Assembly: GCF_963676685.1 (NCBI RefSeq) | Contig: NC_092353.1 | Location: forward strand, 9,424,001 to 9,488,000 | Length of the DNA stretch: 64,000 nucleotides | Reading direction: 5' to 3' | Origin: Mytilus edulis | Taxonomy: Eukaryota | Part shown: one piece after another, positions 1 through 50,676 of the stretch | How positions within the stretch are numbered: position 1 is the first letter of the stretch | Layout of the letters: each line of letters opens with the position of its first letter | The notes under the pieces: generated by a model | The model's database searches: none | Seen by the model: the letters and a program-made list of their open reading frames with translations, nothing else | Told to the model about the DNA's origin: nothing | Program-made: the position numbers and the translations under genes

Positions 1-838
1 TATCACAACTTTACATCCTTGATCATTTAGTTGTGATAAAACGTCACCAATTGATTCAATACTTGCGTCTGTATCTAAAATGAAATCCTTTGTGAAATCC
101 GGATGTGCCAGAACAGAATCGTTTTGAATTTATTTTCAAAATTTCAAAAGATTTTTTAACACCTCATACATAGGGTTTTTCCTTTTCTATAAGAACGTGT
201 AAGCACCTGGCTATAATTGTAAAGTTTTGTATATACCGTCTGTAATAACTGCATAGTCCCAAAAACGAATGTATTTTAGTCACATTGCTTGGGATTGGCC
301 AGTTTTTCACGACTTCAATGTTGTCCCAAAAATAATACCTCTTTTGCACACAAATAACATTTCTTTGCTTAAAGCTTAAGACCAGCTGCACCTAGCCTTT
401 CAAATACTCGATCAAGATTAACTAACATGTCACTAAATGTTTTTTCCAGCTACGATTACAACATCTTAAGAAACTTAACAAATGTCCCATTGCAACACAG
501 CAAGAACTGTTTCCATCAATCTTTCAAATGTACTGGGTACACATCATAGACAAAAGGGCATAACTTTGAATTGAAACAAGCCTCGTCTTGTAGCTGTTTT
601 GTAACTATCATCAGGATGCATTTCCACTTGCCAATAACCTGAACATGAGAACCAGGCACTGCCAGCAACTTGTTCCAGGGACTCGTCAATACGAAGGAGC
701 GGATATGCATCTTTTACCGTTACCTTGTTCAATCTTTAATAATCAACACAGAAGCGATAAGATCCGTCCTTTTCTTCTCGGGTTAACAGGCTGGCATCGA
801 TTTTGTTTGATCCCTGACTGTCACAAACCAACAACTGT
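1..838 (-). mobile_element. Degenerate Ty3/Gypsy LTR-retrotransposon pol fragment (RT, connection, RNase H start), frameshifted
   Basis: Minus-strand pieces read NKVTVKDAYPLLRIDESL, GYWQVEM, RGLFQFKVMPF, NWPIPSNVTKIHSFLGLCSYYRRYI and VLAHPDFTKDFILDTDAS. These are typical Gypsy RT/RNase H motifs, split over several frames. Confidence 0.9.
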
Positions 839-1884
839 AGAGATTGTATTGCGTAGAATGCAATCAATATAAAGTATTTAAAACAGTTGCCAGTCTATTT
901 AATACTGTGCAAGTACCTTTCATCAAAAGAATTAGCAAAACAATATTCACGACTACTAAGTATATGCATCATTATAGAGTAGTGACTGAATGAGAGCAGA
1001 TGTGGTGCGTGTTTAAGATATGCATACATCATAACCAATCACAATTGAAAGTGTATTGTCTCATACCTACTCTTACAGTAATCGTCATTTCTAGGAATAT
1101 GGCTGAACTGGTGCTGTTGTAATAATGTCATGAAATGGATATAGTAGACATTTTGTAAAATGATATCTTGGCCCAAAATGTTACTTGCGTCAAATAAGAT
1201 TCTTTATATGCGGCAAATTTTGCCCCAAATAGGACCTTGTCCTCTTCACAACTTGGGTTTCGAATACTTCAGTAATTGACACTTTACCCTTCACTACAAT
1301 GGCGGATCGTCGAAGTCTTTGTTTTAAAATAGGAGTACATTTCCTTGTTCTATTTATTTTACTGTGCCAAAAGTTCAGGTTTTGACAATTCACAATAAAG
1401 ACAGATCGAACAACGATTCATGCCTTGATAAGATATAAATTTGATGACAACAAAACAGAATTAAGCAATGAAGATATAGCTAAAATAAACCTTTTGTAAG
1501 TGTGACTTTCTCGGTTTAATCAACACATAAATTGGTCTTTTTCACATGAGAAAAAAAACTAGAATAGACTTATACATTGTAGTTGTTAATTCTTATATAT
1601 GTAAGCTATCGTTGTATCTTATCTTCTTGTCTGACGCCAACTAGATACATGTTGTAGGACTATCTCTATATTTAAGTAGGGAGAAATTATAACCTTAAAT
1701 TCTATGTTAAAGTTATTATGTTTATGTATATTCACTTAAATCAGTCATGCGCAGAAAAAAACATGCCTAAACTAATTAAAGTGAAGATCTATTTCAATTG
1801 AACTAGAGACTAACATACAAAATAACAGCAATTCCCATGTTCCTAATTAATAACTTTACATTTTTTTCATGAACCAATATTCTG

Positions 1885-2620
1885 GTACAAAATCTCACAA
1901 GCAGTTACGAAGCCGGACTATGTTGCAGTCAACAAATGCTAATACTTATATGCATGTGGCCAAAGTATATTTTTAAAAAGAAAAACATTTCACCTTCTTC
2001 ATCAATTATATCATTCATCGAATCCCCAGCTCAGGCTGTGCATTGAACATTTCCATTTATACAGTTAGGATTAAAATTCTCCCAACTATATTTTGTAAGT
2101 AGCCATTGATCAATGTTATGAGAGTATTATATACGTTGGGAGAATTTTTATTCACATTTTGTTACTACATTGAGTTATCAAAATAATTTAATTATTCATG
2201 CACATGAACTTATCGAAGTGAATATCTTTATCAATTACACTGGATACTATATAATAGTATTGCATTTTATTTACTTAAACATGATTAATAACGTTTTGAA
2301 CATGTACCATTTCTCTCATTAAGTACAAAATCTCCCAAGCAGCTATACGTACTCGGACAATGTTGCAGTAAACAAATTCGAAATATATGCATGTGGCCAA
2401 AGTGTCATTTAAAAAAGGGAAGACACGATCTTATTCAAACATGATATTTATCATTGAAATCTCTGCACAGGTTTTACAGGTAAAAGTTATATTTAAACAA
2501 TTTGGTCATAATTAAAATTCTCCCAACAACGACTAATTGGCTATAGATAGTTGTTATAAAAAGTTAATAATACGTTGGGAGAATTCCAATTTACATTTTA
2601 TTAATACAATGAGTTCCCTA
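1885..2620. repeat. Older ~440-bp tandem duplication upstream of the vWA gene; each unit contains an inverted repeat
   Basis: GTACAAAATCTC.CAAGCAG...ATGTTGCAGT.AACAAAT...TGCATGTGGCCAAAGT occurs at ~1885 and ~2323. Inverted pairs AATTCTCCCAAC/GTTGGGAGAATT lie at 2073-2148 and 2516-2585. The block recurs at ~12340-13080. Confidence 0.8.
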
Positions 2621-3235
2621 GTTATGCTTATTTAAAAACAATGTAAATATCAATCAAGAGAACAAATACAGAAAATGCAAATATAATTGAGCCAATATTC
2701 ATATAGTTTTTCTACTGATACGAAACATTTCTGTCGATTTAGGTGTCTACTCGGACAACCTCGTGTGTTTTCCTGTAAATTACGTACATGATCAGACTTA
2801 TTTTTATCTATATAAATGTTTACGTCAACAGATTGTACAGTATATAAACCGTATGATTACTTATATGGATCATAATATATCTGTAGTTCACAGCATAAAC
2901 ATTTAGATTGTAATAAAAGTGAGTATTATATTTATTATAGACAAAAGCACCTGCATCAGCTTCAAATTAGTTCTTTTCAAACGACATAAACATGATAAAA
3001 GGGACAACAAAATCAGGTGCCTGAAATGAATCATGTTCCAAAAAACAAAACATATCGGCATAAAGTTGTGTTTTAATATCTTATTTGACAAATTTGTTTT
3101 AAACTTAACATAGAAGGATAACATATAAGATAATGATAAGAGATAAACACTAAGAAGTAAATTATTTAGTTTACTCTGCACAGTCAAACATATATACGTA
3201 TGATTATAATGCATTATATTTTTTTCAGATCAAAG

Positions 3236-5348
3236 ATGACTTTACCAGGTGGGCCGATGGAAATATGTTTTTCATTTGATACGACTGGATCTATGTCTGG
3301 TTGTATCAATGAAGTGAAAGGAAATGTTCAGGACATGATACAACGCCTCCAAGCGGACATTCCTGGTATTCGAATGGCAGTATTTGCTCATGGTGACTAC
3401 TGTGACAAACACAACTACATAACGAAACATATTGACTTCTCGACAAATGTAGCAGAACTGTGTACTTGGGTAAAAAATGTGGGATCTACCGGCGGTGGTG
3501 ATGGGGATGAATGCTACGAACTTGTTTTACAAAACGTCCAAAAGTTGTCTTGGACCCCAGGGTCAAAGAGAGCGCTTGTGATGATTGGCGATGCTGATCC
3601 ACACGAACCCGGATATAAATATGGCGGGAAAACTTATAAAATAGATTGGAGGAAAGAGGCATACCAGCTAATGACAATGGTAATTTCTTTCGTAGAGTAT
3701 AATCTTCATAACTATATTTCATACTTTGACCCATTCATCGAGAAACATTTGTTTTTGGTATTTCAAAAAACTAACTTTAGTTAATTTAATATTTGTTTAC
3801 ATATTATGCACACAACACTGTCAACAAGATTTTATTGTTGATGTTTTTATTTGTTTATACTTGTGTTATCAGAATAATATTAAAAATATATATTTTCAGA
3901 ATGTTAGAATATATGGCGTACAGTGCAGAGGTTATAATTCAACGAAGGATTTCTACAAAAAGATGTCTACTGCCACAGATGGCAAATGTTTAGAATTAGC
4001 AGATTTCAGTAACATGTTTGATTTTATGATGGCAATTTGTTACAGAGAACACGATGAAACTCTCTTACAGGTACACATTTAATATTCCCACAAAATAATT
4101 TTGATCTAGACAAAGCTAGGCTAGCAAAATAATCGACTGTAATGATGCATATTGAAATCCAAACATAAACATAAACATATTTTATTTCACTGGTCAAGGA
4201 CCAACATGGCAAATGACGATAAATCATTATAATAGAATGCAAACAAAAGAATCAAACAAATTTCACCATATCAGAAAAGTTTAACATTTTGATAATTTTC
4301 AAAGCAAAACATGCTAGTATAAGAAACATGGTTATTATTATTTTAGAACTACGAGAAAGAGGTTCGGGCTAGAGGGTCTACGGTTCATAAAGATTTAGAT
4401 GCATTATTTGGGAAATTGATATCAGACGCTGATGTGATGGATACAGTTCCTGCTCCCATAACAAAGATACCATCGTTAACAAAGCCTGGATCTATAAAAG
4501 CCCTAAAACCTACTCCAAAGCCAGTACTAAAGAAAACCATAAAGACAAAGGCTCTACGCTTCAAACCAATGCATGATAAATTGAAGGACAAGAGGAAAAA
4601 CGGACTTTTTGGTAAATACAAGGTATGCAATGTGTATGTGATATAAGCATTAGTTATAAACTATTTTATTGATTATAAAAATATATAATGAAATTTCAGG
4701 TATATATTTGAAACATATCTGTGTTTAATAGATCAACTTCGTAGTCATAGATATATATTATAATATATTAAATAAATTCAATTTGATTTAATAAAGACTC
4801 TTAACTATATAAGACTAATTCGAACATAAAATTTTATAATAGACTACTTCTGTACATTTCAGCTACAAAACTTGCCAAAACTAAAGAGGGAAAATGTTCC
4901 CGAGGCAAATTTCATGTTGAATAGCGCACATTGGTCTAAATGGCAGGTGGCAATGGTATCGTCTGTGCCAGCTGACGAGGAGCACAAGTGGGAAAAACGG
5001 CATGGGGATTCAGAAGGATATAGAAGGAAAGTAATTTGTGGCGGAAGTTACAAGAAACCAACTTTATACGAGTTCGCAGTACAAAATGGAGAACGTTGTA
5101 GGAGATACGTTGTTTACTGCAAGTCAAGTAAAGGATTCATTTTGGATAGAGGGTCATGGGAAACTAGATTATTGACAAAGTCAGACGTGAAGTCTCAGAT
5201 AAATGACATTTTGAAAAAAGACATGCGACTGTTTGTCCGAAGTTGTCCATTAATGAAAAGCCAAGATAAACTACTAGCATTGAATCATTATGACTACGCT
5301 TGGTCAAACAAAGGGTCAATAAGAACTGTGAAACACATAGATGTATAG
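3236..5348 (+). CDS. vWA-domain protein with Lys/Pro linker and C-terminal ET/HRT-type GIY-YIG-like domain, copy A; join(3236..3679,3900..4070,4347..4622,4863..5348), 458 aa
   Basis: There are four exons (444+171+276+486 nt), all with GT-AG phase-0 junctions, joining into one open frame. The MIDAS-type DTTGSM, GGGDGDECYE and IGDADPHE motifs indicate vWA. An acceptor at 3227-3228 implies a non-coding upstream exon. Confidence 0.88.
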
Positions 5349-7304
5349 AACTATATATGGGCACTTATAACTATAGTAATACTGGTGCATTTGTTATAAA
5401 TACTCATCTAAGAAGGGGATGACTAACAGTATATATCATGTCTCGGACAAACATTTTCATTTTTGTTTTGCTGTGTATATTTCATAACATATCAAATGTT
5501 ATCCTGATTGTAAATAATGTAAATATAATATATAGTGTACATTTGTAAGAAGGAAAACACAGTTCAGCCAAGTTCACTTCTGTGATGAATTAATTGTGAT
5601 AAATAAGGTTTAAATATATACAAATGTATATAGTGAACAATTATTGGTTTGTTGTATATATGTAAATAGTTCAAATACATGTAAATAAAATATGTTATAA
5701 ATAATAATTACTGTTGCTTCTGATTTAACCATGTGCTCACCGGTCATATGCTGACATTAATAAAGCAGAGGGCATATACACGAACACATAAACAATGAAC
5801 ACAAACCATTCAATAAAAGTTCCTCGATTGTTCTTTAATCTAATTTGATATAGACATCTAAACTAAAATTTCAAAGTTGCAAAAGTAAAAGTAAAACGGT
5901 GATATGAATAGCATTATGCACCAATGACGATTATTATACAACTCTAACATGCTGCTCCTGTACACAGATTTTGTATATAATTCAGATAGAAGTTCGTTTT
6001 TTTCTAAAAACAAATCAATTGGGTACGTGTAACATACAGTGTATTTCAATGTATATTTGAGTTATGCCGTTTTGTCGGATGAATTTCACTATACTGGCAT
6101 GAACATACGAGTATTATTTGATTTGTCTTTGTTAGCATTTCCTCACTTGTATTAGGTTTTGGATTTTGGGCTCGAATGATCATTTATTTTGATTGACAAT
6201 TAACGTTGGAACGTTAATTTTATACAGGAACATATAGTTATGAGCTTGGTGTTAACCACAATTTGACAACAAAAAAATCTACAACTGATCGATCTTAAAT
6301 ATTGTATAAAAATATTGAAAAACTAGGATGAGAGTACCAAGGAAGCAATAAAAAACTGAAATGAACAAACAATCACTAAACAGATACAGATTACAAACCA
6401 TTCAAGTAAATGGGCGAGCAATTATGCACAAAACACCACACTTAATGTTAAAAATAACCAACACGGACCCCCACAAACGTTAACAGGGGTGATCTCATAT
6501 GCTCTGGAATTGTACAGCAAATCAAGCTTAATAAGTGACATTCGTTATTTCACTCATTTGCAGTAATTTTATAATTATTAGCATTCAGTGATGTCACAAT
6601 TGAAGAGAAGAGGACGGAAGTGTAACGTGTAACGGGCTATCAATGATCCGTATCTTAATAAATCAGGATTTCAAGTGTTCAACTCAAATTTGCACCACAA
6701 CAAGTTGTCCTATTTTAAACTTAACACACCCTTAAACGAATTTACAATATGTCAAATATATACACACCACAACGCACATAAATTAAATTACAAGGTAAAG
6801 TTCCTCATTCACAATGTATAAACACAATGCCTTATTGCAGAACATATACACAATGTCACTATGCAATCACTATGCAGCATGTATTAAGAATCTATTAAGC
6901 CTGATAATTCACAATGTCACTTACATATCACTATGCAGCATGCATCAGACACTTTATTACACAATGTCACCAACGGATTACTATGCAACATGCATCAGAT
7001 AAATATCACACAAAACGTATGAACACATTTATAGCACATATATACAACATCAATTAACAATATCCACCAATTTGTAATATCACCTTATGCATGTTCAATT
7101 ACACTTTCACAATGCACAAGGAATGTATATCAACACAGCTCATATCACACACTAATTATCACTATGAATCCAAACGAAATGAATATATTCCAAACTGGTA
7201 AGATTAAACACAGTGCACTTTCACTTATACACTTCCACAATATAACAACTTGCAACACCAGCAAGTATACACCTTGTATTCTCACTAACACACTTCCACA
7301 ATGT

Positions 7305-8487
7305 AACAAAGAGGGTCGAAAGATACCAGAGGGAAGTCAAACTCATAAATCGAAAATAAACTGACAATGCCTGGCTAAAAAAGAAGATAAACAAACAAGC
7401 AATATAATACATGACACAACATAGAAAAATAAAGAATAAGCAACACGAACCCCACCAAAAACTAGGGGTGATCGAAGGTACTCCAGAAGGGTAAGCAGAT
7501 CCTGCTCCACATGTGGCACCCGTCGTGTTGCTTATGTTATAACAAATCCGGTAAATAGTCTAATTCGGTAGGTCACATTCATGAAAGGGAAGGGGATTGT
7601 AGTTACGTAAGGAACATATCCGATATCATTTGTGAAACGGTTATTCCATAACGGTCAACCAACTCGTGATGGCGTCCGTAAAATTTACGAAGGGATGAAT
7701 TCAACTTCACCATTGGAACTCTTTGTTTAATAGCTTCCTTGTAAGCAGCAACCCTCTATCAAGAAAATCATGTTAGGGAATGCAAGCACAGGAATATCGT
7801 ATCAATTGGGCGATATATAACCCGTATGCACGTGCTGCAGGAATGTTGCTACTTAGAAATGGAAATTTCACAATTGGAAAACTGAAATCATTTCTTTTGT
7901 CGTAAAGTTTTGTTTTCAACCGACCCTCATTGTCAATTTCTAGACGTAAGTCAAGATATGAGGCCGACTTAACTGTATCTGTTGTATCCTTTATCTCTAG
8001 TTCGATGGGATAGATGCGTTCAACATAGTCACCAAAGTTTGAATTATTTAGTGAAAGAACGTCATCAATATAGCGGAAAGTAGAGTTAAAGGATATTGCT
8101 AACTTCTTATATTTCTTTCTAAGAAGTTCATGAATGAAGTCAACCTCATAATAATAAAGAAACAAGTCGGCAAGAAGAGGTGCACAATTGGTTCCCATTG
8201 GAATGCCGACAGTCTTTTGTTTTAATCAAAGTGATCCTGTACAAAGTAGGATTTATCCCTCCCATAAACAAGATACTTGCATCTACGATGGCCATTATTT
8301 TTATGAAACAAAGCAATACCAACTCTTTCAATTTGTCTTTTAGTATGGAATATGGAATACTTGTGTAAAGAGTAGAAAAGTCAAAAGTTTTAATACTATT
8401 GCAAGATGAAAGAGAGTTAGATTGTATGTACTCTAAAAGATCTTTGGAATCTTTAAGTATCCACATCTGATTCACGCCACCTCTTGC
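7305..8487 (-). mobile_element. 5'-truncated, internally deleted Penelope-like retroelement (RT remnant plus 3' end)
   Basis: Motifs include KTFDFSTLYTSIP, GTNCAPLLADLFL, FRYIDDVL, SYLDL and LYDKRNDFSFPIV..SNIP..AYG...QLIRY. A frameshift and deletion lie near 8200. A fragment of the same 3' end recurs inverted at ~24990-25030. Confidence 0.85.
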
Positions 8488-8669
8488 AACTTGCAACACC
8501 AGCAGATATACACCTTGTACTTTAACTGTAGAATAACTTTGTTTAAACATAATTTCCAGAAGCACAAGCATATCAGAAATTTGATGACCACTCCGAAATA
8601 TATTGCACTTAATAGGTTTGATATAATTTAGCCTCTGCAGCGGCAACAAGACCTACTCTTATCGAAATC

Positions 8670-11117: not shown

Positions 11118-13707
11118 AAATAAGTATTTATTTGTTTCCTTTGAACAAGCGGCATTAGATACAAAAACTACAAACTGCCGGCTACAATCGGAATAGTTTG
11201 TCCGTGTAAGAAGATTTTTATCTTTTGAATTAGCACCTAAATATTCGTCCTAGTAATTTCTGTCTATTACGAATCAATGTTCGTTACGCAAAATCATTGA
11301 CTTTTAAATTCTGACAGTAAAGGTGCCATAACTCTGCCACGACATCAAGAATCGAAATATGGCTCATTTTTATTAATCCAAAAAACATCATCGTGTTTCA
11401 ATAGAATGATTCACCTTATGCAAGTTAAATGCACGATATATGAAATCGCTTTAAATCTTACGGTTGACATCATGTAGCTCTGTAGCGACACACCGATAAA
11501 AATTCAAAGGTCTGGACACTTTCTTCAAATATTTTATACAAGGTTTGCAAAATTTGTCTGTGACCTTTGTAAGACATGTTAATGGACTCATTTTGTAAAA
11601 TGATTTCTGGGCCCAAAATATTACTTGCGTCAAATAAGATTCTTTATGTGCGGCAAATTTTGCCCTAAATAGGTCCTCTTCACAACTTGGGTTTCCAATA
11701 CTTCAGTAATTGACAATTTACACATCACTACAATGGCGGATCATCGAAGACTTTGTTTTAAAATAGGAGTACATTTCCTTGTTGTATATATTTTGCTGAG
11801 CCAAAAGTTCAGATTTTAATAAAGACAGATAGAACAACTATTCATGCCTTGATAAGATATAAATTTGATGACAACAAAACAGAATTAAGCAATGAAGATA
11901 TAGCTAAAATAAACCTTTTGTAATTGTGACTTTCTGGGTTTAACATGTTTAATCAACACAAATTGGTCTTTTTCGAATGAGAAAAAAAACTAGAATAGAC
12001 TTAAACATTGTAGTTGTTAATTCTTATATGTAAACTAGCTATCGTTGTATCGTATCTTCCTGTCTGAAGCCAACTAGATACATGTTGTAGGACTATCTCT
12101 ATATATATCTTGTAAGTCTCTTGACATTTAAGTAGGGAGAAATTATAACCTTAAATTATATGTTAAAGTTATTATGTTTATGTATATTCACTTAAATCAG
12201 TCATGCGCAGAAAAAACATACCTAAACTAATTAAAGTGAAGATCTATTTCAAATGAGCTAAAGACTAACATACAAAATAACAGTAATTCCCATGTTCCTA
12301 ATTAATAACTGGACATTTTTTTCATGTACCAATATTCTGGTACAAAATCTCACAAGTACCTACGTAGCCGGACTATGTTGCAGTCAACAAATGCTAATAT
12401 TTATATGCATGTGGCCAAAGTATAATTTTAAAAAAGAAAAACATTTCACCTTCTTCATCAATTATATCATTCATCGAATCCCAAGCTCAGGTTGTGCATT
12501 GAACATTTCCATTTATACAGTTTCGGCTTGATTAAAATTCTTCCAACTACATTTTGTAAGTAGCCATGGATCAATGTTATGAGAGTATTATATACGTTGG
12601 GAGAATTTCTATTCACATTTTGTTACTACATTGAGTTATCAAAATAATTCAATTATTCATGCATATAAACTTATCGAAGTGAATATCTTTATCAATTACA
12701 CTGGATACTATATAATAGTATTGCATTTTATTTACTTAAACATGATTAATAATATTTTGAACATGTACCATTTCTCTCATTAAGTACAAAATCTCCCAAG
12801 AAGCTATACGTACCTGGACAATGTTGCAGTAAACAAAATTCGAAATAAATGCATGTGGCCAAAGTATCATTCAAAAAGGGGAAGACACGATCTTATTCAA
12901 ACATGATATTTATCATTGAAATCTCTGCACAGGTTGTACAGGCAAAATTTATATTTAAACAATTTGGTCATAATTAAAATCCTCCCAACGACTAAATGGC
13001 TATGAATAGTTGTTATAAAAAGTTAATAATACGTTGGGAGAATTCCAATTTACATTTTATTAATACAATGAGTTCCCAAGTTATGCTTATTTAAAAACAA
13101 TGTAAATATCAATCCAGAGAAAAAATGCAGCAAATGCAAATATAATTGAGCCAATAGTCAAATAGTTTTTCTACTGATACGAATCATTTCTGTCGATTTA
13201 GGTGTCTACTCGGACAACCTCGTGTGTTTTCTTTTAAATTGTTTACATGATCAGACTTATTTTTATCTATATAATATAAATGTTTACGTCAACAGATTTG
13301 TACAGTATATAAACCCTATGATTACTAATGTGGATCATAATATATCTGTAGTTCACAGCATAAACATTTAGAGTTATATTGTAATAAAAGTGAGTATTAT
13401 ATTTATTATAGACAAAAGCACCTGCATCAGCTCCAAATTAGTTCTTTTCAAACGACATAAACATGATAAAAGGGACAACAAAAACAGGTACCCGAAATGA
13501 ATTATGTTCCAAAAAACAAAAGAAATCGGCAATAAGTTGTGTTTTTAATATCTTATTTGACAAATTTATTTTAAACTTAACAGAGAAGGATAACATATAA
13601 GATAATAATAAGAGATAAACACTAAGAAGTAAATTATTTAGTTTACTCTGCACAGTCAAACATATATACGTATGATTATAATGCATTATATTTTTTTCAG
13701 ATCAAAG

Positions 13708-15826
13708 ATGACTTTACCAGGTGGGCCGATGGAAATATGTTTTTCATTTGATACGACTGGATCTATGTCTGGTTGTATCAATGAAGTGAAAGGAAATGTT
13801 CAGGACATGATACAACGCCTCCAAGCGGACATTCCTGGTATTCGAATGGCAGTATTTGCTCATGGTGACTACTGTGACAAACACAACTACATAACGAAAC
13901 ATATTGACTTCTCGACAAATGTAGCAGAACTGTGTACTTGGGTAAAAAATGTGGGATCTACCGGCGGTGGTGATGGGGATGAATGCTACGAACTTGTTTT
14001 ACAAAACGTCCAAAAGTTGTCTTGGACCCCAGGGTCAAAGAGAGCGCTTGTGATGATTGGCGATGCTGATCCACACGAACCCGGTTATAAATATGGCGGG
14101 AAAACTTATAAAATAGATTGGAGGAAAGAGGCATACCAGCTAATGACAATGGTAATTTCTTTCGTAGAGTATAATCTTCATAACTTTATTTCAAACTTTG
14201 ACCCATTCATCGAGAAACATTTGTTTTTGGTATTTCAAAAAACTAACTTTAGTTAATTTAATATTTGTTTACATATTATGCACACAACACTGTCAACAAG
14301 ATTGTATTGTTGATGTTTTTATTTGTTTATACTTGTGTTATCAGAATAATATTAAAAATATATATTTTCAGAATGTTAGAATATATGGCGTACAGTGCAG
14401 AGGTTATAATTCAACGAAGGACTTCTACAAAAAGATGTCTACTGCCACAGATGGCAAATGTTTAGAATTAGCAGATTTCAGCAACATGTTTGATTTTATG
14501 ATGGCAATTTGTTACAGAGAACACGATGAAACTCTCTTACAGGTACACATTTAATATTCCCACAAAATAATTTTGATCTAGACAAAACTAGGCTAGCATA
14601 AAATAATCGACTGTAATGATTGCATATTGAAATCCAAACATAAACATAAACATATTTTATTTCGCCGATCAAGGACCAACATGGCAAATGACGATAAATC
14701 ATTATAATAGAATGCAAACAAAAGAATCAAACAAATTTCACCATATCAGAAAAGTTTAACATTTTGATAATTTTCAAAGCAAAACATGCTAGTTTAAGAA
14801 ACATGGTTATTATTATTTTAGAACTACGAGAAAGAGGTTCGGGCTAGAGGGTCGACGGTTCATAAAGATTTAGATGCATTATTTGGGAAATTGAGATCAG
14901 ACGCTGATGTGATGGATACAGTTCCTGCTCCCATAACAAAGATACCATCGTTAACAAAGCCTGGATCTATAAAAGCCCTAAAACCTACTCCAAAGCCAGT
15001 ACTAAAGAAAACCACAAAGACAAAGGCTCTACGCTTCAAACCAAAGCATGATAAATTGAAGGACAAAAGGAAAAACGGACTTTTTGATAAATACAAGGTA
15101 TGCCATGTGTATGTGATATAAGCATTAGTTATAATAAACTATTTTATTGATTATAAAAATATGAAATGAAATTTCAGGTATATATTTGAAACATATCTGT
15201 GTTTAATAGATCAACTTCGTAGTCATAGATATATATTATAATATATTAAATAAATTCAATTTGATTTAATAAAGACTCTTAACTATATAAGACTAATTCG
15301 AACATAAAATTTTATAATAGACTACTTCTGTACATTTCAGCTACAAAACTTGCCAAAACTAAAGAGGGAAAATGTTCCCGAGGCAAATTTCATGTTGAAT
15401 AGCGCACATTGGTCTAAATGGCAGGTGGCAATGGTATTGTCTGTGCCAGCTGACGAGGAGCACAAGTGGGAAAAACGGCAAGGGGATTCAGAAGGATACA
15501 GAAGGAAAGTCATTTGTGGCGGAAGTTACAAGAAACCAACTTTATACGAGTTCGCAGTACAAAATGGAGAACGTTGTAGGAGATACGTTGTTTACTGCAA
15601 GTCAAGTAAAGGATTCATTTTGGATAGAGGGTCATGGGAAACTAGATTGTTGACAAAGTCAGACGTGAAGTCTCAGATAAATGACATTTTGAAAAAAGAC
15701 ATGCGACTGTTTGTCCGAAGTTGTCCATTAATGAAAAGCCAAGATAAACTACTCGCATTGAATCATTATGACTACGCTTGGTCAAACAAAGGGCCAATAA
15801 GAACTGTGAAACACATAGATGTATAG
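13708..15826 (+). CDS. vWA + ET/HRT-type GIY-YIG-like protein, copy B; join(13708..14151,14372..14542,14822..15097,15341..15826), 458 aa
   Basis: Exon sizes and splice sites match copy A, and the frame is intact. It differs from copy A by 7 amino acids. Confidence 0.88.
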
Positions 15827-18303
15827 AACTATATATGGGAACTTATAACTATATTAATACTGGTGCATTTGTTATAAATACTCATCTAAGAAGGGGATGA
15901 CTAACAATATATATCATATCTCGGACAAACATTTTCATTTTTGTTTTGCTGTGTATATTTCATAACATATCAAATGTTATCCTGATTGTAAATAATGTAA
16001 ATATAATATATAGTGTACATTTGTAAGAAGGAAGACACAGTTCAGCCAAGTTCACTTCTGTGATAAATTAATTGTGATAAATAAGGTTTCAATATTGTAT
16101 ATACAAATGTATATAGTGAACAATTATTTGTTTGTTGTATATATGTAAATAGTTCAAATACATGTAAATAAAATATGTTATAAATAATAATTACTGTTGC
16201 TTCTGATTTAACCATGTGCTCACGGGTCATGTGCTGACATTACTAAAGCAGAAGGCATAAACAATGAACACAAACCATTCAATAAACGTTCCTTGATTGT
16301 TCTTTAACCATGTTAACCTAATTTGATATAGACATCTAAACAAATTTCAAAGGTTGCAAAAGTAAAAGTAAAACGGTGATATGAATAGCATTATTCACCA
16401 ATGACGATTATAACTCAAACATTCTGCTCCTGTACACAGATTTTGTATATCATTCATAGAAGTTCGTTTTTTCTAAAAACAAATCAATAAGGTACGTGTA
16501 ACATACTATGACATACAGTGTATTTCAATATATATTTGAGTTATGCCGCTTTGTCGGATGAATTTCAATTTAAACAACCAAGCGGATACAAAATGAAAAA
16601 TCACACATTTCGTCGCCTCAATCAGCATCGATATATATCAACACAATTATCTTTATAACTCTTCATAGAATGTCAAAACGTGATACACATGTACAATAGT
16701 CATTATGACGAATTCATCTTTTTTCAAACAGCAAAGAAAAACTCCGTTTACATGTACATATACGTCCATGACGTACAAATATACGTCCTTGCTTTAACTA
16801 AACTCATGTGCATCGTCAACAAATTTAGATTCAATTTTCTAGTTGATCATGAATGCCTTCTGTATGCATAGTTTGGCTTTTCCTGATAAAAGAATACTCG
16901 AATAGATAACAAGATTATATGTCTTTTTTTATTGACCAATATAGACGAATTTGCTTAATTATATTGTTAGTAAACTGTCTTACTGACTGTACCATCCCTT
17001 GACATTTTCTTCCTAGTCGGATACAACATGTAAAACTAAACAATATTTGCTAAATTTTTGTCAGTAAAATATGTCGCGAGACTCTCAACTTGTAGGTTAT
17101 CAAGCTACTTCTTTTACATAGTCATAACAATGCTAGTTTCATATTTTATGCTAACCTCAAACATTTGACTTTAATATTTTGCAACGGGAATCGAAATGAC
17201 AATGACAACTCTCCACAAAAAGACACAGAATGCAAACATTTCAGTAATCTAAGAAATTATTCATTCAGGGTACGTTGGATCGAACCGCATTCAGATTCAG
17301 AAAGATTATACACTTAGATCGGAAATAAAATCACATCATAATGACAAGAGGAAGATGGGAGATGATCAATTCGCAACAGATTTCTTTTTCAAACGATTAC
17401 AGATTTAGAACCCAAAAATAATTCCATCTATCGTGACTTCAGTAATCGTATACTGATTTCAAAAACCTCATACATGTTAGTACTCCACTGGTGCTAATGA
17501 CTACTAACACTTACAGAATTACAATTTGTCTTTTAAAACACGAATTCATAATAAAACACAACACCTATCACTATTTGCTGTGAATCAATGAAACATGGAG
17601 TAAATTGATATAATTAAACAGGAATAAGTGTTGTTATCGAAAAAATATAACTTATATTTGATTTGCATTTTATATTTTTTCTTTTTTACATAATTTGTGT
17701 TCATTGTGGATTAATTTCATGTTTCATTATAATTTACTTGCAATAAGCCAGCCGACATGTGTTAAAAGTGGTTGTTCCTTAAATACCAGTTTAATCTTCT
17801 ACTGTTGATCTATAATTATTCATACATATTTTCATGGATTTCGTCGGAAAGGATTACCATTACATGTATATAACTGTAAAATGTTTACGGAAATACAAGC
17901 GTGGTACGCATAATATGTTAAAACGTCGCTTTCAGGTATCCATAGAATTACAAACTCTCGTGAATTCACGCAAATTGGTGCCCATGATATCAAAAGATTT
18001 CACAGTAGCTCTTCAGTGGTTTAAGATAATATACAACCTATGCTTTGATCATTAAGGCATGAGCGTACCTGTTGCAAGTAAATTCAGACTTGCGATTTGG
18101 ACGTGACAAATATTACTAGGGTGTTAGAGTTACTTCTCTTTAAATAGTGCCACATTTAGAAGTTGGTCTATTTATGAGAAATTAAACAGATTATACAATC
18201 AGGTGTTTTGATCGTATGCACGGTAATTTCTAGTGGTCCACGTTAATCATTAGAATTTTTTCAAACATTCCAATATAAGTTTTTAAATATATATTGTCAT
18301 GAA

Positions 18304-22400: not shown

Positions 22401-22469
22401 AAACCAACTATACAAGGAGCCAAACAGTCGTACAGACACAATGTCTATGAAACGTGGCTCTAAAAGGTA

Positions 22470-24433
22470 AGTCAGTATACCACATTAATAGACCCAAGGC
22501 AGATGAGTCAGTATACCTTGTTCATAGACCTAAGGCAGATGAGTCGGTATGCCATATTCAAAGACCTAAGACAGATGAGTCGGTATACAATATTCATAGA
22601 CCTAAGGCAGACGAGTCGGTATACCATATTCATAGACCTAAGACAGATGCGTCGGTATACAATATTCATAGACCTAAGGCAGATGAGTCTGTGTATCATA
22701 TTCATAGTCCTAAGGCAGATGAATCGGTATACAATATTCATAGATCTAAGACAGATGAGTCAGTATACAATATTCATAGACCTAAGGCAGATGAGTCAGT
22801 ATACCATATTCAAAGACCTAAGACAGATGAGTCTGTGTACCATATTCATAGACCTAAGGCAGATGAGTCGGTGTACCATATTCATAGACCTGAGGCAGAT
22901 GAGTCAGTATACCATATTCAAAGATTTAAGACAGATGAGTCTGTGTACCATAATCATAGACCTAAGGCAGATGAATCGGTGTACCATATTCATAGACCTA
23001 AGACAGACGAGTCAGTATATCATATTCATAGACCTAAGGCAGATGAGTCAGTATTAACATATTCAAAGACCTAGGACAGATGAGTCTGTGTACCATATTC
23101 ATAGACCTAAGGCAGACGAGTCGGTGTACCATATTCATAGACCTAAGACAGATGAGTCGGTATATCATATTCATAGTCCTAAGGCAGATGAGTCGGTATA
23201 CCATATTCATAGACCTAAGGCAGCTCAGTCAGTATACCATATTCATAGTCTTAAGGCAGATGAGTCAGTATACCATATTCATAGACCTAAGGCGGATTAG
23301 TATATCATATTCATAGACCTAAGGCAGATGAGTCAGTATACCATATTCATAGACCTAAGGCGGATGAGTCAGTATACCATATTCATAGACCTAAGACAGC
23401 TCAGTCAGTATACTATGTATTCATAGACCTAAGGCAGATGAGTCAGTATACCTTGTTCATAGACCTAAGGCAGATGAGTCAGTATACCATATTCATAGAC
23501 TTAAGGCAGATGAGTCAGTATACTTTGTTTATAGACCTAAGGCAGATGAGTCAGTATACCTTGTTCATAGATCTAAGGCAGATGAGTCAGTATATCATAT
23601 TCATAGACCTAAGGCAGACGAGTCGGTATACCATATTCATAGACCTAAGGCAGCTCAGTCAGTATACCATATTCATAGACCTAAGGCAGATGAGTCAGTA
23701 TACCTTGTTTATAGACCTAAGGCGGATGAGTCAGTATACCATATTCATAGACTTAAGGCAGATGAGTCGGTATATCATATTCATAGACCTTAGGCAGATG
23801 AGTCGGTATACCATATTCATATACCTAAGGCAGATGAGTCAGTATTCCATATTCATAGACCTAAGGCAGACGGGTCGGTGAACCATATTCATAGACCTAA
23901 GGCAGATGAGGCGGTATATCATATTCATAGACCTAAGGCAGACGAGTCGGTGTACTATATTCATAGACCTAAAGCAGATGAGTCGGTATATCATATTTAT
24001 AGACCTAAGGCGGATGAGTCAGTATACCACAGATGAGTCGGTATACCATATTTATAGACTCAAGGCAGATGAGTCGGTATATCATATGCATAGACCTAAG
24101 GCAGATGAGTCAGAATACCATATTCATAGACCTAAGGCAGATGAGTCAGTATACCATATTCATAGACCTAAGGCAGATGAGTCGGTATACCTTGTTCATA
24201 GACCTAAGGCAGATGAGTCAGTATACCATATTCATAGACCTAAGGCAGATGAGTCGGTATACCTTGTTCATAGACCTAAGGCGGATGAGTCGGTGTACCT
24301 TGTTCATAGACCTAAGGCAGATGAGTCAGTATACCTTGTTCATAGACCTAAGGCAGATGAGTCAGTATACCTTGTTCATAGACCTAAGGCATATGAGTCG
24401 GTATACCATGTATGCATAGACCTAAGGCGGATG
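22470..24433. repeat. 36-bp minisatellite, ~54 copies (consensus GACCTAAGGCAGATGAGTCAGTATACCATATTCATA)
   Basis: The periodicity is directly visible and explains the 12-aa-repeat ORFs in both frames. Confidence 0.97.
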
Positions 24434-24496
24434 AAGTTTTAACAAATTGTGAGACTTTAAATCATATACAATATACATATATGGTATGCTTATATA

Positions 24497-34763: not shown

Positions 34764-35238
34764 TTTCACTCATCATACTCAATACAATGTTTCACTCATC
34801 AAACTCAATACAATGTTTCACTCATCATACTCAATACAATGTTTCACTCATCATACTCAATACAATGTTTCACTCATCATACGTAATACAATGTTTCACT
34901 CATCATACTCAATACAATGTTTCACTCATCATACTCAATACAATGTTTCACTCATCATACGCAATACAATGTTTCACTCATCATACGCAATACAATGTTT
35001 CACTCATCATACTCAATACAATGTTTCACTCATCATACTCAATACAATGTTTCACTCATCATACTCAATACAATGTTTCACTCATCATACTCAATACAAT
35101 GTTTCACTCATCATACGCAATACAATGTTTCACTCATCATACTCAATACAATGTTTCACTCATCATACTCAATACAATGTTTCACTCATCATACGCAATA
35201 CAATGTTTCACTCATCATACTCAATACAATGTTTCACT
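34764..35238. repeat. 26-bp minisatellite, ~18 near-perfect copies (TTTCACTCATCATACTCAATACAATG)
   Basis: Directly visible; variation is almost limited to ACTCAA/ACGCAA. Confidence 0.97.
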
Positions 35239-36140: not shown

Positions 36141-36267
36141 AAGACTATCGTTAGCTCAAATCATTACCTCATTGCAAGTGCAAGACCGCTTCAAGTCCGG
36201 TTTGAGCAGATTTCGATTAGATCTTTTATGACCTGACATCTTACATGCAAATCTTTTCGTTCTGTTG

Positions 36268-37050
36268 TCTTTCTGAAGATTCAATGTGTATATTGATGAC
36301 AGTTGCGCTAAGGATTCAGTTTTAACAGATGTCATTTTCTCTGAGGATTCAGTGTGAATCGATGACAGTTTTTCTGAAGATTCAGTGTAAACTGATGTCA
36401 ATTTCTCTGAAGATTCAGTGTGACCTGATGCCAGTTTCTCTTAAGATTTAGTGTAACTAATGTCGGTTTCTCTGAAGATTCAGTGTGAATTGATGACAGT
36501 TTCTCTGACGATTCGATGTGAACTGATGACAGTTTCTCTGAAGGTGCAATGTGAGCTGACAACAGTTTATATGAGTGTGATCTGATTATAGTTTCTCTGA
36601 AGAATTAGTGTGAACTGATCACAGTTTCTATAAAGATTCCGTGTGAATTGATGTCAGTTTCTCTGAAGAATCAGTGTGAACCGATGACAGTTTCGCTTAA
36701 GTTTCAGTGTGAATTGATGACAGTTTCTACAAAGATTCAGTGTAAACTGATGTCAGTTTCTCTAAAGTTTCAGTTTGAACTGATGTCAGTTTCTCTGAAG
36801 TTTCAGTGTGAACTAATGAAAGTTTCTCTGAAGGTTCAGTGTGAGCTGATGACAGTTTCTATAAAGATTCAGTGTGAACTGATTTAAGTTTATCTGACGT
36901 TCCAGTGTGAACTGATGACAGTTTCTATGTAGATTCAATGTGAACTGATGAAAGTTTCTCCGAAGATTCAGTGTGAACTGATGATAGTTTTTTGGAAGAT
37001 CCAATAGGTTTTTTAAGAAGGTATTCTTAAAATTCAGTGTGAACGTACGC
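36268..37050. repeat. 33-bp degenerate minisatellite, ~23 copies (ACTGATGACAGTTTCTCTGAAGATTCAGTGTGA), decaying to ~37310
   Basis: The periodicity is visible, and the 11-aa-repeat ORFs are by-products. Confidence 0.9.
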
Positions 37051-44867: not shown

Positions 44868-45224
44868 ATGGATGAGATAGAATCATGTGAAAATATAGCC
44901 AGACTTGATAACATATTCGATATAATATATGCAAAGTCAGTTTTTGACATTCTGAAGAAGGAAAATCAAGTGGAACACATAAGTGGAGGAAATGCATGGG
45001 ATTTTTTTTATCAAGTAGAAACAGATAAAGTGTACACCGATTTTGTTAATTTAGTCAGACAATCAAATATTCCAGATAATGTGAGAGTCTACTATCAACT
45101 TACATTTTTACAATCAACAGATTGGAAAAATACTATATTGAAAACACCGCACAGAGCATCTCGCATAATAGATAAAGTTGAAAAAATGATAGATTTGGAA
45201 CCTATTTTTAACAATGGAAAATGA
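44868..45224 (+). CDS. Polinton hypothetical protein, 118 aa
   Basis: A clean ATG ORF starts at the TIR edge and overlaps the integrase start by 11 nt. No motif was recognised. Confidence 0.7.
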   Translation: MDEIESCENIARLDNIFDIIYAKSVFDILKKENQVEHISGGNAWDFFYQVETDKVYTDFVNLVRQSNIPDNVRVYYQLTFLQSTDWKNTILKTPHRASRIIDKVEKMIDLEPIFNNGK

Positions 45225-46368
45225 TGATTTAGATGAAAAACTTAGGAATGTATATTACAATACAGCAAATGGGGGAGCATACCTAAGTGCTGAAAAAATT
45301 TATCAAACGTTGAAGACATCAAGAGATGGAAATGTACCAAGCGTATACAAGATCAGGAAATGGATGGAAAAAATAGACGACTACAATTTACAAAAACCTG
45401 TAAAACGTAGAATTAAAAGAGTGAAAATAATTGTATCGGAACCGTATGAGCAATACGATGCTGACCTTATGGATGTATCCAACATACAGAAATATAACAA
45501 TAAGACACGTTTCCTGTTGGTTGTTATCGATATTTTCACACGGTTTTTATGGATTTATCCATTAAAAAACAAGTTTGGGAAGACAGTAGCTGATGCATTT
45601 GAAAAAATCTTCAAACATGGTAAAATCCCTTTGAAGGTTTCCACAGATGCGGGAACTGAATTCAAAAACAAAGATTTGAAACGTGTGTTTAAAAAATATG
45701 ACATTTACCATCATGTCTATTTAAATTCCGACAGTAGTAAAGCGTCAATAGCAGAGAGGGTCAATTTGACATTTCGGAGGATGATGTTCCGATATTTTAC
45801 AAAGCATAGAACTTATAGCTATCTCAATGTTCTACAAAATTTGGTAGCAAGTTATAATGCAACGCCACATAGAAGTTTAAATAATACAGCTCCAAAAGAT
45901 GTGAATGAGAAAAACAAATATGATTTGTGGGCATATATGTATATTAAAACTCCACCCAAAGAAAAACGAATCAGAGAAAAGAAAGAAACATTAAAAGTAC
46001 AACGTAAAAGAGGGAAACAGTTTCATTTTAAAATCAATGACATGGTAAGACTGAGCCATTTGAAGAAACCGTTTCAAAGAGCTTATCAGCAACAGTGGAC
46101 CTCCGAAATATTTAAAATATATAGACGATTTCTAATACATGGGAAAATCTTTTATAAAGTACAAGATTTTTTGGACAAGGAAGTTGTAGGCAATTTCAAT
46201 TATACAGAGTTGCAGCGTGTGAAAAAGGAGGCTGACGCATTGTGGTTTGTTGAGAAAGTGCTTAAATGGCGAAGGCGGAATGGTCAACGTGAGGGTTATG
46301 TAAAATTCCAGGATTGGGATAAACGTTTTTGTCAGTGGATTCCTGAGAGAGATATTGTTGACTTTTAA
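45214..46368 (+). CDS. Retroviral-like (rve, DDE) integrase with C-terminal chromodomain
   Basis: The catalytic D-D-E is in YDADLMD, STDAGTEF and IAERVN. Other motifs are YNATPHRSL and WTSEIF, and the chromodomain WFVEKVL...YVKFQDW....QWIP. Confidence 0.96.
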   Translation: MENDDLDEKLRNVYYNTANGGAYLSAEKIYQTLKTSRDGNVPSVYKIRKWMEKIDDYNLQKPVKRRIKRVKIIVSEPYEQYDADLMDVSNIQKYNNKTRFLLVVIDIFTRFLWIYPLKNKFGKTVADAFEKIFKHGKIPLKVSTDAGTEFKNKDLKRVFKKYDIYHHVYLNSDSSKASIAERVNLTFRRMMFRYFTKHRTYSYLNVLQNLVASYNATPHRSLNNTAPKDVNEKNKYDLWAYMYIKTPPKEKRIREKKETLKVQRKRGKQFHFKINDMVRLSHLKKPFQRAYQQQWTSEIFKIYRRFLIHGKIFYKVQDFLDKEVVGNFNYTELQRVKKEADALWFVEKVLKWRRRNGQREGYVKFQDWDKRFCQWIPERDIVDF

Positions 46369-46369
46369 A

Positions 46370-46777
46370 ATGAGCTTTTACATGGTCATTAACAGTAACA
46401 AAAATTTAGACATTTACCCACATAACAGACCACACAAATTCCGTACATATCTTCAGACGCCAATAGTGATGAAATCAAAATGGAAAGTCGCATTAGTTGA
46501 TATTAAATTATCATCAAATAATGATCTATATATATATGCAAACATATGCGGTGATGTAATAGTCGATGGTAACAAACAACCCTTATTGAAGCGAATATGT
46601 TGCTGCTCTCAAACTGAATACTACCACTTTGATCAACTTGCATACATTCCAGTGGTGAAAAGTGAAATAAGAGACATTGAATTCTTTATTACTGACATGC
46701 AAGGGAGTCATGCATCATTTTTAAAAAATCCAGTGTCGATTACACTGCACTTCAGGTCGTATCCATACTTTGCATGA
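46370..46777 (+). CDS. Minor capsid (penton, single jelly-roll) protein, 135 aa from ATG 46370
   Basis: It shows the Polinton penton pattern FYMVINSN...YP.N...FR..L..PI....WKVAL..I...LYIYANI....VDG...PLLK....Y.PV....I..IEF.ITD..G....F...P..ITLHFR. Confidence 0.85.
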   Translation: MSFYMVINSNKNLDIYPHNRPHKFRTYLQTPIVMKSKWKVALVDIKLSSNNDLYIYANICGDVIVDGNKQPLLKRICCCSQTEYYHFDQLAYIPVVKSEIRDIEFFITDMQGSHASFLKNPVSITLHFRSYPYFA

Positions 46778-47244
46778 TAATCATGGAATTGAACAATTCT
46801 CAATATGTGCTAGACCCTAGGACATGGATAATGTACTATGAAAATCTAGCGAATGACAAACATCACAATTCATATCTTAATAATTCATACAGAAGAACTA
46901 TCCAGAGTGGTGGTTCCCTCACTAATTCAGCAGCTAGCTTCATGGAACCAATCACATTACCACAAAGTAAACCACATGCGCAATCACCCATTAAACTTGT
47001 AACACATGCACAGCAGCAGGTGGAAAATGCTAAGTCGGAAATTAGTCGAGCTGTGAAAAAGATAAAACGCAAACGTGGGAAGTTACAAAACAGTAATAGA
47101 AAAAGCCATAGAGGGGAGCAGAAGAAAACGAAAAAGACAAAGAAAGGAGGAAGGAAAAATAAAACAAACAGTAAGAAAGGAAGTGTACAGAGTGTGAAAA
47201 AAAGATTAAAGAATCAGCTAATTGAAAAGGATATTTTCCAGTAA
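46774..47244 (+). CDS. Basic Lys/Arg-rich putative virion core/DNA-condensing protein
   Basis: It has a very basic C-terminal half and an IQSGG motif, and sits between the capsid genes. It overlaps the penton stop as ATGA. Function is inferred. Confidence 0.7.
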   Translation: MIIMELNNSQYVLDPRTWIMYYENLANDKHHNSYLNNSYRRTIQSGGSLTNSAASFMEPITLPQSKPHAQSPIKLVTHAQQQVENAKSEISRAVKKIKRKRGKLQNSNRKSHRGEQKKTKKTKKGGRKNKTNSKKGSVQSVKKRLKNQLIEKDIFQ

Positions 47245-47252
47245 AATTCAAA

Positions 47253-48575
47253 ATGGCTAAAATAAATCCTGAAACATTTCATGAGCTGCAACCAAGTCAG
47301 TTGTCTTTATTCAATCTACCAGGTCATCAAACTGCAGTCACAAGAATCACATATGAACATATTCGACCAGCTGCAACTTTTACAAAGACATCGCCAATAG
47401 AGTTTCACATATCTGGTGGAACAGAGTATCTAGACTTAAGTAAATCAACAATGCATGTACGTCTAAGACTTAAAAGAGGAGATGGAACCATAGCAGATAG
47501 CAGTGACGTTAATTGCGGGCCTGTGAACTATGTTTTGCATGCATTATTTAATCAAATAGATGTTTTAATTCAAAATAAAATTGTCACATCTTCAACAGGA
47601 TTTTACCCTTACAAAGCTTATATGCAAACTTTATTGAAATATGGGAAAGAAGCTAAAGAATCGCAGCTCTCAAGTCAATTATGGATAGACGATCATCAAG
47701 GAACATTGGATGATGCAGATTGTAACACAGGATCAAATCTTGGGCTCTACAGAAGAACAGCATACATAAAAAATGGTAAAACTGTTGATCTTGAAGGAAA
47801 CATTTTCCATCCCCTGTTTTCAATGAATCGTTACATATTAAATCAAGTAGGAGTTACTGTGAAATTCTACAGATCGAGACCAGAATTTTATCTAATGTCG
47901 GTTGATGAAGATGCTGATTATTACCTTGAGATTGAAGATATGTATCTATCAATAGCAAAGATCCACGTTCACCCCGGCATTGTATATGGCCACGATTCTA
48001 TACTCAGGACAGTAAACGCTAAATATCCCATTGTGCAAAATGATGTTCGCACAATTTCACTTCCAGCTGGTCAAATAAGTTTTAACTTCAACAACATATT
48101 CCAGAATAATAGACCCAATAAGGTATTGATAGCCTTTACGGGGAGTCAAAACATAGCAGGTGACTACTCACTATGTCCGTGGACATTCAAACATTGCCAC
48201 CTAAGTGAAATAAATCTTAAAGTTGAGGGAGTGCCAGTTTCCGGGAATCCTGTCAGAGTAAAATTTGACTCGTCAAGTGGAGAATCATCCATTGTTGCAT
48301 TTCGCAATCTATTTGAGGTTGCTGGGAAAACTCTGCAAGACTGTGGTAATGGATTAAACAGAGACAGTTTTTCTGAAGGATATGCCTTGTATGCCTTTCA
48401 ACTGGAACCAATTTTTGAAGGTTTAGATTATTTAACATTGAAAAGGAATGAACGTGTCAATTTGGAATGCACATTTGATTCTCCCCTCACTGAACCAACA
48501 ACTATAATCATTTATAGTGAATTTAGTGGATATTTTGAAATAACTCAAACTCGAGACATCATAATTCAAGAATGA
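47253..48575 (+). CDS. Major capsid protein (double jelly-roll), 440 aa
   Basis: It has the Maverick MCP motifs SQLSLF..P..QT, PIEFHI.G..EYLDLS, PVNY.LH.LF.QIDV, YPYKAY.QTLL.YG and GYALYAF.L. Size and position also fit. Confidence 0.93.
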   Translation: MAKINPETFHELQPSQLSLFNLPGHQTAVTRITYEHIRPAATFTKTSPIEFHISGGTEYLDLSKSTMHVRLRLKRGDGTIADSSDVNCGPVNYVLHALFNQIDVLIQNKIVTSSTGFYPYKAYMQTLLKYGKEAKESQLSSQLWIDDHQGTLDDADCNTGSNLGLYRRTAYIKNGKTVDLEGNIFHPLFSMNRYILNQVGVTVKFYRSRPEFYLMSVDEDADYYLEIEDMYLSIAKIHVHPGIVYGHDSILRTVNAKYPIVQNDVRTISLPAGQISFNFNNIFQNNRPNKVLIAFTGSQNIAGDYSLCPWTFKHCHLSEINLKVEGVPVSGNPVRVKFDSSSGESSIVAFRNLFEVAGKTLQDCGNGLNRDSFSEGYALYAFQLEPIFEGLDYLTLKRNERVNLECTFDSPLTEPTTIIIYSEFSGYFEITQTRDIIIQE

Positions 48576-49039: not shown

Positions 49040-49101
49040 AAAAGTGTTTAAAATGATGAGACACATGGTAACAATCATCATTCGAGCAAGAGGTGATCAT
49101 C

Positions 49102-50436: not shown

Positions 50437-50676
50437 TGAAGAAGTGGATTATTTAAAACTATTGGAGACTTCAATCAATCACTTGTATTTTTCTTTAAAT
50501 TTGTCTATATTTATATATGTATATAATATATTGTCTATTTGTATATTTACACTGTGTACCTTTAAATTTAATTAATAAAATAAATATTTAGATAACATAT
50601 GTTCGCCTATTAGTTCTAGTCCACGATCGCGTAGTATATATAAAACGTTGAAAGTGCTATTGATATCACAATTGTC

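Follow-up and report, generated by a model that had tools for sequence, protein, structure and literature searches.

A predicted vWA–GIY-YIG pseudonuclease gene of the mussel Mytilus edulis and its relatives in molluscs

Closest described systems

The described proteins nearest to the C-terminal domain considered here are the plant EFFECTOR OF TRANSCRIPTION (ET/HRT) factors. According to PMC6585611, these factors combine a GIY-YIG-type domain with Cys/His repeats, are found only in plants, and owe their nuclease domain to recruitment from bacterial UvrC-like proteins; ET2 nicks DNA. PMC3045582 and PMC1564403 describe GIY-YIG catalysis as relying on the Tyr of GIY, which serves as the base, an invariant Arg, and a metal-anchoring Glu; the Gly of YIG is strongly conserved on steric grounds, whereas the first two residues of GIY are variable. 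In the former source, a side chain in place of the YIG Gly is stated to clash with both the phosphate and the Tyr of GIY, and the GIY glycine is reported to vary among active enzymes.

The gene analyzed here lies in a 64,000-nt stretch of M. edulis contig NC_092353.1 (hereafter, the window). Its product consists of a vWA domain followed by a basic linker and a domain with the same extended form as that of the plant ET/HRT proteins (PF19239), beginning with RE..WS.W and ending with [YF]DYAW. Plant-type ORFs retained all site residues (two of the two compared) and carried Cys/His ET repeats, whereas the mussel protein has neither and bears the vWA domain in front. The closest well-sampled profile belongs to a stand-alone ET-type family exemplified by Acropora millepora LOC122962524, which, unlike the mussel protein, has an intact site and no vWA domain. 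Proteins of large viruses (IMG/VR loci L041–L049; BFVD M1I060 and M1HHK8) resemble the animal clade in the PAVYEFAV form and in an RR pair but keep YxG, Arg, His, Glu, and Asn, have no vWA gene within 3 kb, and form a separate branch; among viral structures, M1I060 and M1HHK8 matched best (E 8e-5 and 4e-4, respectively). The N-terminal half has its counterparts in phage proteins (Virus Rctr197k gp275, Rhizobium phage RHph_I1_18, and crAss-like phages), in which the vWA domain and a helical cap occur as in the mussel.

We failed to find in the open-access full text of PMC and bioRxiv any description of a vWA–GIY-YIG fusion, an animal ET-type family, or a GIY-YIG pseudonuclease. VWA is already tagged in databases on Mytilus proteins, and PF19239 on some of the relatives; both domains are known, while their combination in one protein and the loss of the site across the family appear to be undescribed. 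A “GIY-YIG domain containing” transcript from a Mytilus toxin study (PMC6215123) was not taken as a product of this gene: its forward primer matched neither the window (up to three mismatches) nor any of 124 loci exactly.

Gene structure and domain composition

The coding parts at 3236–3679, 3900–4070, 4347–4622, and 4863–5348 (forward strand, like all parts of the gene) together with GT–AG introns gave an ORF of 458 aa; this four-exon structure, proposed in the first-pass annotation, agrees with spliced contigs and with a protein annotated at NCBI. Coding exon 1 (3229–3679, ATG at 3236, aa 1–148) encodes the N-terminal part of the vWA domain with DTTGS (D15–S19), GGGDGDECYE, and GDADPH (D119), and coding exon 2 (3900–4070, aa 149–205) encodes its C-terminal part and the start of the helical cap. 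Coding exon 3 (4347–4622, aa 206–297) contains the end of the cap and then the Lys/Pro-rich linker, while coding exon 4 (4863–5348, aa 298–458 and the stop codon) corresponds to the ET/HRT-type (PF19239) GIY-YIG domain without the active site. A non-coding 5′ exon of at least 43 nt (2876–2918) was present on one contig of run X1 only, where the joint from 2918 to 3229 was of the GT..AG type with 43 letters on its short side. The 3′ UTR was placed at 5349–5646; its end is approximate, with contigs extending to 5595–5646.

Transcripts were checked in 8 of 24 listed public runs, comprising five contig runs (presumed RNA) and three raw RNA-seq runs. The contig runs were taken as transcript-type because intron-free contigs are the expected product of spliced RNA. 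All three junctions were present in spliced contigs from these presumed RNA runs. In three of the five contig runs, belonging to three studies, all four exons were carried on single contigs (X9, 1643 nt; X10, 1610 nt; X13, 1334 nt), which bears out the joining of exon 4 to the vWA exons; runs X1 and X6 carried the junctions piecewise. The raw RNA-seq runs contained 5, 6, and 2 reads on the gene, X24 with one read each over introns 1 and 2. The same 458-aa protein was annotated at NCBI (P0003, M. galloprovincialis LOC143048542, 99% identity over exon 4); M. californianus and M. trossulus have related proteins.

The first-pass annotation had also taken the phase-0 boundary of exon 4 as consistent with exon shuffling. 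This argument did not hold: all three introns of the gene are in phase 0 and exon 4 is terminal, so that the phase gives no evidence of shuffling. The start of exon 4 precedes the domain by about nine residues, and all five paralogues checked on C10 have the same phase-0 acceptor ahead of it. Capture of a stand-alone gene as the last exon is plausible and would fit the short stand-alone intact ORFs described below.

The vWA domain with its DTTGSM MIDAS, the Lys/Pro-rich linker, and the exon-4 motifs quoted in that annotation were all present. The linker (aa 233–303, 71 aa) was predicted to be disordered, with a net charge of +15, a pI of 10.5, and AF2 pLDDT below 50 at 234–277; the net charge was −5 for the vWA domain and +11 for the disarmed domain. 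The full-length AF2 model (pTM 0.57) gave no sign of packing between the vWA and exon-4 domains, and the two folded parts appear independent in it. A homodimer prediction (score 0.00, alignment not used) is uninformative. The mussel protein has no hydrophobic leader; a strongly hydrophobic one was absent from all six members tested.

The vWA domain of the window matched PF25106 above its cut-off (30.9 bits, E 2.3e-7), and its model matched integrin beta chains in Foldseek (E 4e-11). The MIDAS-type DTTGS was found in 21 of 25 full vWA members and GD..PH in 22 of 25; Thr replaces the first Ser of DxSxS, and metal binding is predicted. The vWA domain with its cap (aa 2–248) was 38.5% identical to a phage Rctr197k protein (E 4e-52), and 39 phage records matched in total; exon 4 had no match among the phage records. 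Three phage vWA proteins were compared: two had a different C-terminal domain, with no Pfam match, and the third had none. The vWA domain thus acts like a module whose tail can be exchanged. A search with the vWA exon gave no viral contig and two weak bacterial loci; NCBIfam gave no matches, and PHROGs gave two weak ones of unknown function. Judged from sequence similarity, the vWA part shares its ancestry with viral proteins. The Mya orthologue was named YR811-like by NCBI, a label which we take to refer to mimivirus R811. Two phage vWA proteins (L122, 1470–2549; L123, 4986–6089) had a common C-terminal domain of about 110 aa without a Pfam match. Mussel vWA genes of the same broad type were found at L023–L030 (C1, C3, and C10) as long single ORFs, several with leader-like hydrophobic starts, and a second group of intron-split vWA genes at L031 and L032 (C13 and C4).

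Exon 4 belongs to the GIY-YIG superfamily and is of the ET/HRT type (PF19239), in line with the resemblance originally noted. Taken alone, the window domain scored below the PF19239 cut-off (14.7 bits against 21.4, E 0.027); its mussel paralogue P0006 passed it (23 bits), and among the 150 relatives listed, 33 matched at E ≤ 0.01 and 17 exceeded the cut-off. In profile–profile comparison, the mussel-type profile A2 (108 rows) matched the intact family A3 (89 rows) with 99.06% probability (E 1.9e-18, 149 columns). Its match to three plant ET-type ORFs (92.8%, E 4e-7) covered only the first 66 columns and came from a three-sequence profile; A3 matched the same ORFs at 97.7% over 149 columns. The window peptide was 23% identical to a plant-type ORF in pairwise alignment (E 1e-4), and the animal-clade profile matched the plant-type ORF of L115 in a small search set (E 1.2e-7).

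The ET/HRT link was tested by a scan of metagenome contigs for the C-terminal motif, which gave 70 loci. The intact-family profile matched 52 of them, and 34, the plant-type ORFs among them, carried RCxxH[KR]G, which we take as the mark of ET repeats. In the unspliced ORFs L115, L100, and L109, the domain was followed by Cys/His repeats, as in the layout that PMC6585611 gives for ET. PF19239 matched L115 over the full domain length (216.8 bits, positions 1–163) and is therefore, in effect, the ET/HRT domain. No Cys/His ET repeats were found in the 458-aa sequence as read. In two other loci of this type, the domain was followed by short GPxKxDGxPDxRYxxN-type repeats (L102, 670–1884, reverse strand) or preceded by zinc knuckles (L088, 118–1182, reverse strand).

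The AF2 model of exon 4 had a pLDDT of 92.6. Its alignment to a full structure library (48,161 chains) placed four GIY-YIG nucleases at the top, namely T4 endonuclease II, Hpy188I, UvrC's N-terminal domain, and I-TevI (Z 7.1, 4.4, 4.2, and 3.9, respectively). The first of these (rmsd 3.2, 109 aligned residues) was the sole chain with Z ≥ 5; its Z of 7.1 lies in the “common” range of the tool. These active enzymes have the same fold at 10–12% identity without a sequence-level match, while the mussel domain is without the site. The comparison with known folds thus supported the GIY-YIG assignment at the level of profiles and of the full-library alignment but not in Foldseek, where the exon-4 model had no PDB match at E ≤ 1e-3 and Hpy188I was ranked first. 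PDB sequence searches with A1, A2, and A3 returned no GIY-YIG protein. A word-indexed A3 search for longer proteins was empty and is uninformative, the known relative P0040 also being missed.

Active site, family range, and mussel paralogues

The loss of the GIY and YIG glycines had been read as a sign of inactivity. We compared site residues in 145 clade domains among the matches listed (6 of 151 were dropped as too short or unmatched) and 120 intact ones. In the window protein Y366 and Y382 are kept, while the YIG Gly is replaced by K384, Arg by S395, His by D405, Glu by K433, and Asn by S445; none of the five scored residues is retained, against five of five in both plant-type rows. Among the matches listed, the GIY Tyr was kept in 89% of the 145 clade domains, and the YIG Gly in only 4 of them (119 of 120 intact), the clade having mostly Lys or Arg at this position. 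The invariant Arg was found in 13 of these listed domains (within two positions in 45) versus 118 of 120 intact, the Glu in 6 versus 119 of 120, unchanged when anchored on the YDYAW motif, and the Asn after the Glu helix in 23 versus 120 of 120. Out of Gly, Arg, Glu, and Asn, 102 of the 145 domains among the matches listed kept none, 40 kept one, 3 kept two, and not a single one kept three, whereas all four were present in 117 of 120 intact domains. The large-virus rows keep all five scored residues with A-V-Y in place of GIY in five of six, and the GIY glycine therefore says nothing on activity. The part of the original argument that stands is the loss of Gly of YIG, Arg, Glu, and Asn; the GIY glycine is not diagnostic. 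These replacements suggest that cleavage was lost in the disarmed family, which is predicted to be a pseudonuclease family throughout.

A 70-row tree (mixture model, quick search, no bootstrap, unrooted) placed the disarmed domains on one side of a branch with an SH-aLRT support of 98, or 97 without the nine site columns; in FastTree with all 273 domains, the support of the disarmed group was only 0.43. A single old loss of the site is likely in this group. Direct descent of the disarmed clade from the large-virus group was considered as well, and the tree gave it no support.

A profile of eight mussel domains retrieved 209 representatives at E ≤ 1e-3, 150 of which are the matches listed. Among these 150, a 14-member profile detected a full vWA domain in 24 and a partial one in 18; 74 ORFs of at most 230 aa and 34 longer ones had none. 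Eight of 32 longer vWA-less ORFs among the matches listed begin inside the vWA cap helix. Many short clade ORFs open with intron-like text ending in FQ and are, for this reason, likely single exons called alone. Among short ORFs, 20 of 52 had an acceptor-like [FLY]Q ahead of the domain, versus 14 of 117 intact ORFs, an excess that hints at a conserved intron ahead of the domain. P0024, P0025, and P0030, together with cluster members P0298–P0302, had an N-terminus that is basic and rich in Ser and Arg, and no vWA domain was detected in them; the sub-group of the first three seems to be truly vWA-less.

Of 26 representatives of the disarmed clade looked up, 5 had an organism name (Haliotis, Lottia, Patella, Mya, and Magallana), and these were all molluscs; the ET-type domain itself extends beyond plants. 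Two of the PF19239 matches, P0040 and P0142, have textbook GIY-YIG motifs. The query P0142 gave 119 proteins, mostly stand-alone, including A. millepora LOC122962524. This intact family (P0180–P0297) consists of ORFs of about 170 aa, several of them apparently on shared contigs, with a median of 8 aa before the first motif and no vWA domain in any of 118; from their residues, these stand-alone proteins are predicted to be active nucleases. The intact stand-alone domain was also found in the nine large-virus loci L041–L049 on five contigs of 288–369 kb. With intact members in Acropora, Mercenaria, and large viruses, the domain is no plant import and can no longer be regarded as plant-type only, as it had been at first. 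The Mercenaria mercenaria protein P0040 (LOC123525290, 991 aa) has an HTH/CENP-B-like region and six tandem ET-type repeats, of which the last alone has the full site; its five degenerate repeats look like a separate loss because they fall outside the disarmed clade, and the protein may be a polymer in which dead and live domains are joined.

A tandem copy of the whole gene is located at 13708–15826 on the forward strand (exons 13708–14151, 14372–14542, 14822–15097, and 15341–15826) with an intact ORF, differing from the first gene by seven amino-acid and nine synonymous changes. In self-BLAST of the window, it belongs to a duplicated 5-kb block (1149–6088 and 11589–16567, 94.5% identical). 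In some letters the transcript variants agree with one copy and in others with the second, and the transcripts are therefore not assignable to one of them; the second copy may be a haplotype duplication in the assembly. Retroelement reverse-transcriptase-like fragments, recognized by eye, flank the first copy at 7603–8652 and 164–894 (both on the reverse strand); one was scanned and had no Pfam match at 1e-3. Self-BLAST offsets showed tandem arrays at 22459–24448, 34764–35238, and 36267–37000, their periods being about 36, 26, and 33 bp, respectively. A Maverick/Polinton-like set was found at 45193–56326 (forward strand), at a distance of some 30 kb from the tandem copy; it encodes an integrase (rve, E 3e-10), an adenovirus-type protease (PF00770), and an A32-type ATPase (PF04665), along with a 1278-aa protein-primed-polymerase-like ORF and a 449-aa capsid-like ORF, both assigned by eye without a naming Pfam hit.

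Protein search of the mussel genome with exon 4 gave nine loci; a further locus on C7 and one at C1:79.0 Mb were added from vWA hits. The genome thus contains at least 11 copies of the domain, 10 of 11 behind the same vWA exons; the paralogue L007 is frame-broken and has no vWA domain in the preceding 5 kb. Paralogous genes are arranged as tandem pairs or clusters. In five of seven paralogue pairs with measurable dS, dN/dS of exon 4 was 0.19, 0.11, 0.12, 0.12, and 0.12, while L005/L006 and L005/L007, the latter including the broken copy, had 0.45 and 0.47; dS was saturated in two further pairs. These low values in five pairs indicate that the domain is maintained: exon 4 is under purifying selection (dN/dS about 0.12). 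No intact ET-type copy was found in the mussel genome with the queries P0190, P0296, and P0040, which had no positive control; the query P0037 retrieved 10 known loci. A PF19239 search matched neither the mussel genome nor 14 controls and is uninformative.

Candidate function and significance

The mussel protein is not to be classed as an ET/HRT factor, having neither ET repeats nor the site, nor as an active GIY-YIG nuclease. On balance, though by no means securely, we predict a non-cutting DNA-binding adaptor acting inside the cell. The disarmed domain, with its old DNA-facing surface, and the basic linker would grip nucleic acid without cutting it, while the metal site of the vWA domain would hold a partner protein; the whole would act as a tethered adaptor recruiting partners to DNA. 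The recruitment step draws on the general role of the vWA MIDAS in binding partner proteins. The absence of a hydrophobic leader points to an intracellular location, and the ancestry of the fold together with its charge suggests DNA binding; that nicked or branched DNA would be preferred is a guess. The median net charge of disarmed domains among the matches listed was +19 versus +7.5 for intact ones, with at least +8 in 94% versus 50%, and the linkers of all 22 full-length proteins measured had net charges between +7 and +120. Against the adaptor counts that a basic charge by itself would suit RNA or acidic proteins as ligands as well as DNA.

It counts against the adaptor, too, that pseudo-enzymes often turn into protein-binding scaffolds. 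A scaffold of this kind, with the disarmed domain serving beside the vWA domain as a second protein-interaction module without nucleic-acid binding, seems rather unlikely. The model has a short Arg helix (H99–103 of exon 4), and the best-conserved clade residues (W321, W324, E367, R423, Y442, and W444) are also kept in the intact family and look structural, as a scaffold would allow; it is less easily reconciled with disarmed domains that are more basic than intact ones and always stand behind a basic linker. We give distinctly little credence to a decoy or inhibitor, whose disarmed domain would pair or compete with intact ET-type nucleases from viruses or selfish elements. Intact relatives do exist in nine large-virus loci, the P-A-V-Y-E-F-A-V motif form is common to them and the animal clade, P0040 of Mercenaria joins five degenerate repeats to one intact repeat, and the genes are arranged in tandem pairs or clusters. 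However, the viral group is not joined to the clade in the tree, no intact copy was found in the mussel genome with the three queries (no positive control), and selection on exon 4 is purifying rather than diversifying.

A structural chromatin protein, possibly of the germline, in which a histone-H1-like linker would compact DNA with the folded domains as anchors, is improbable. Very long K/A/T-rich linkers of some relatives (P0133, net +120) and the apparently vWA-less P0024, P0025, and P0030, with only a basic tract and the disarmed domain, speak in its favor; the strongly conserved MIDAS, which a packing protein would not need, and the few reads in three raw RNA-seq runs of unstated tissue speak against it. 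That the protein still cuts, by a rebuilt site or by residues supplied in trans, is very improbable, even with the GIY Tyr, the general base, kept in 89% of domains among the matches listed and with the Glu supplied in trans by Hpy188I, as described in PMC3045582. No new conserved acidic residue was found, Glu being within two positions in 60 of the 145 domains among the matches listed and exact in 6, and the side chain at the YIG Gly position, mostly Lys or Arg in the clade, would clash according to the same source.

The adaptor reading could take a narrower form. A mollusc intracellular sensor of foreign or damaged DNA, with a disarmed ET-type domain as its reading head and a vWA domain of phage or giant-virus type as its signalling handle, is unlikely; if it were true, the ET/HRT regulators, supposedly plant-specific, would have in this family a counterpart in animals that does not cut. 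The presence of the ET-type domain in animals and large viruses alters the story of its origin. In animals, the domain occurs in two states: intact and stand-alone in coral and clam, and disarmed with a vWA domain, as an old and conserved family, in mussels, oysters, clams, limpets, and abalones. These would provide a matched active/dead pair for testing the GIY-YIG fold without catalysis, and the multi-copy family of “uncharacterized” mollusc proteins receives a testable name.
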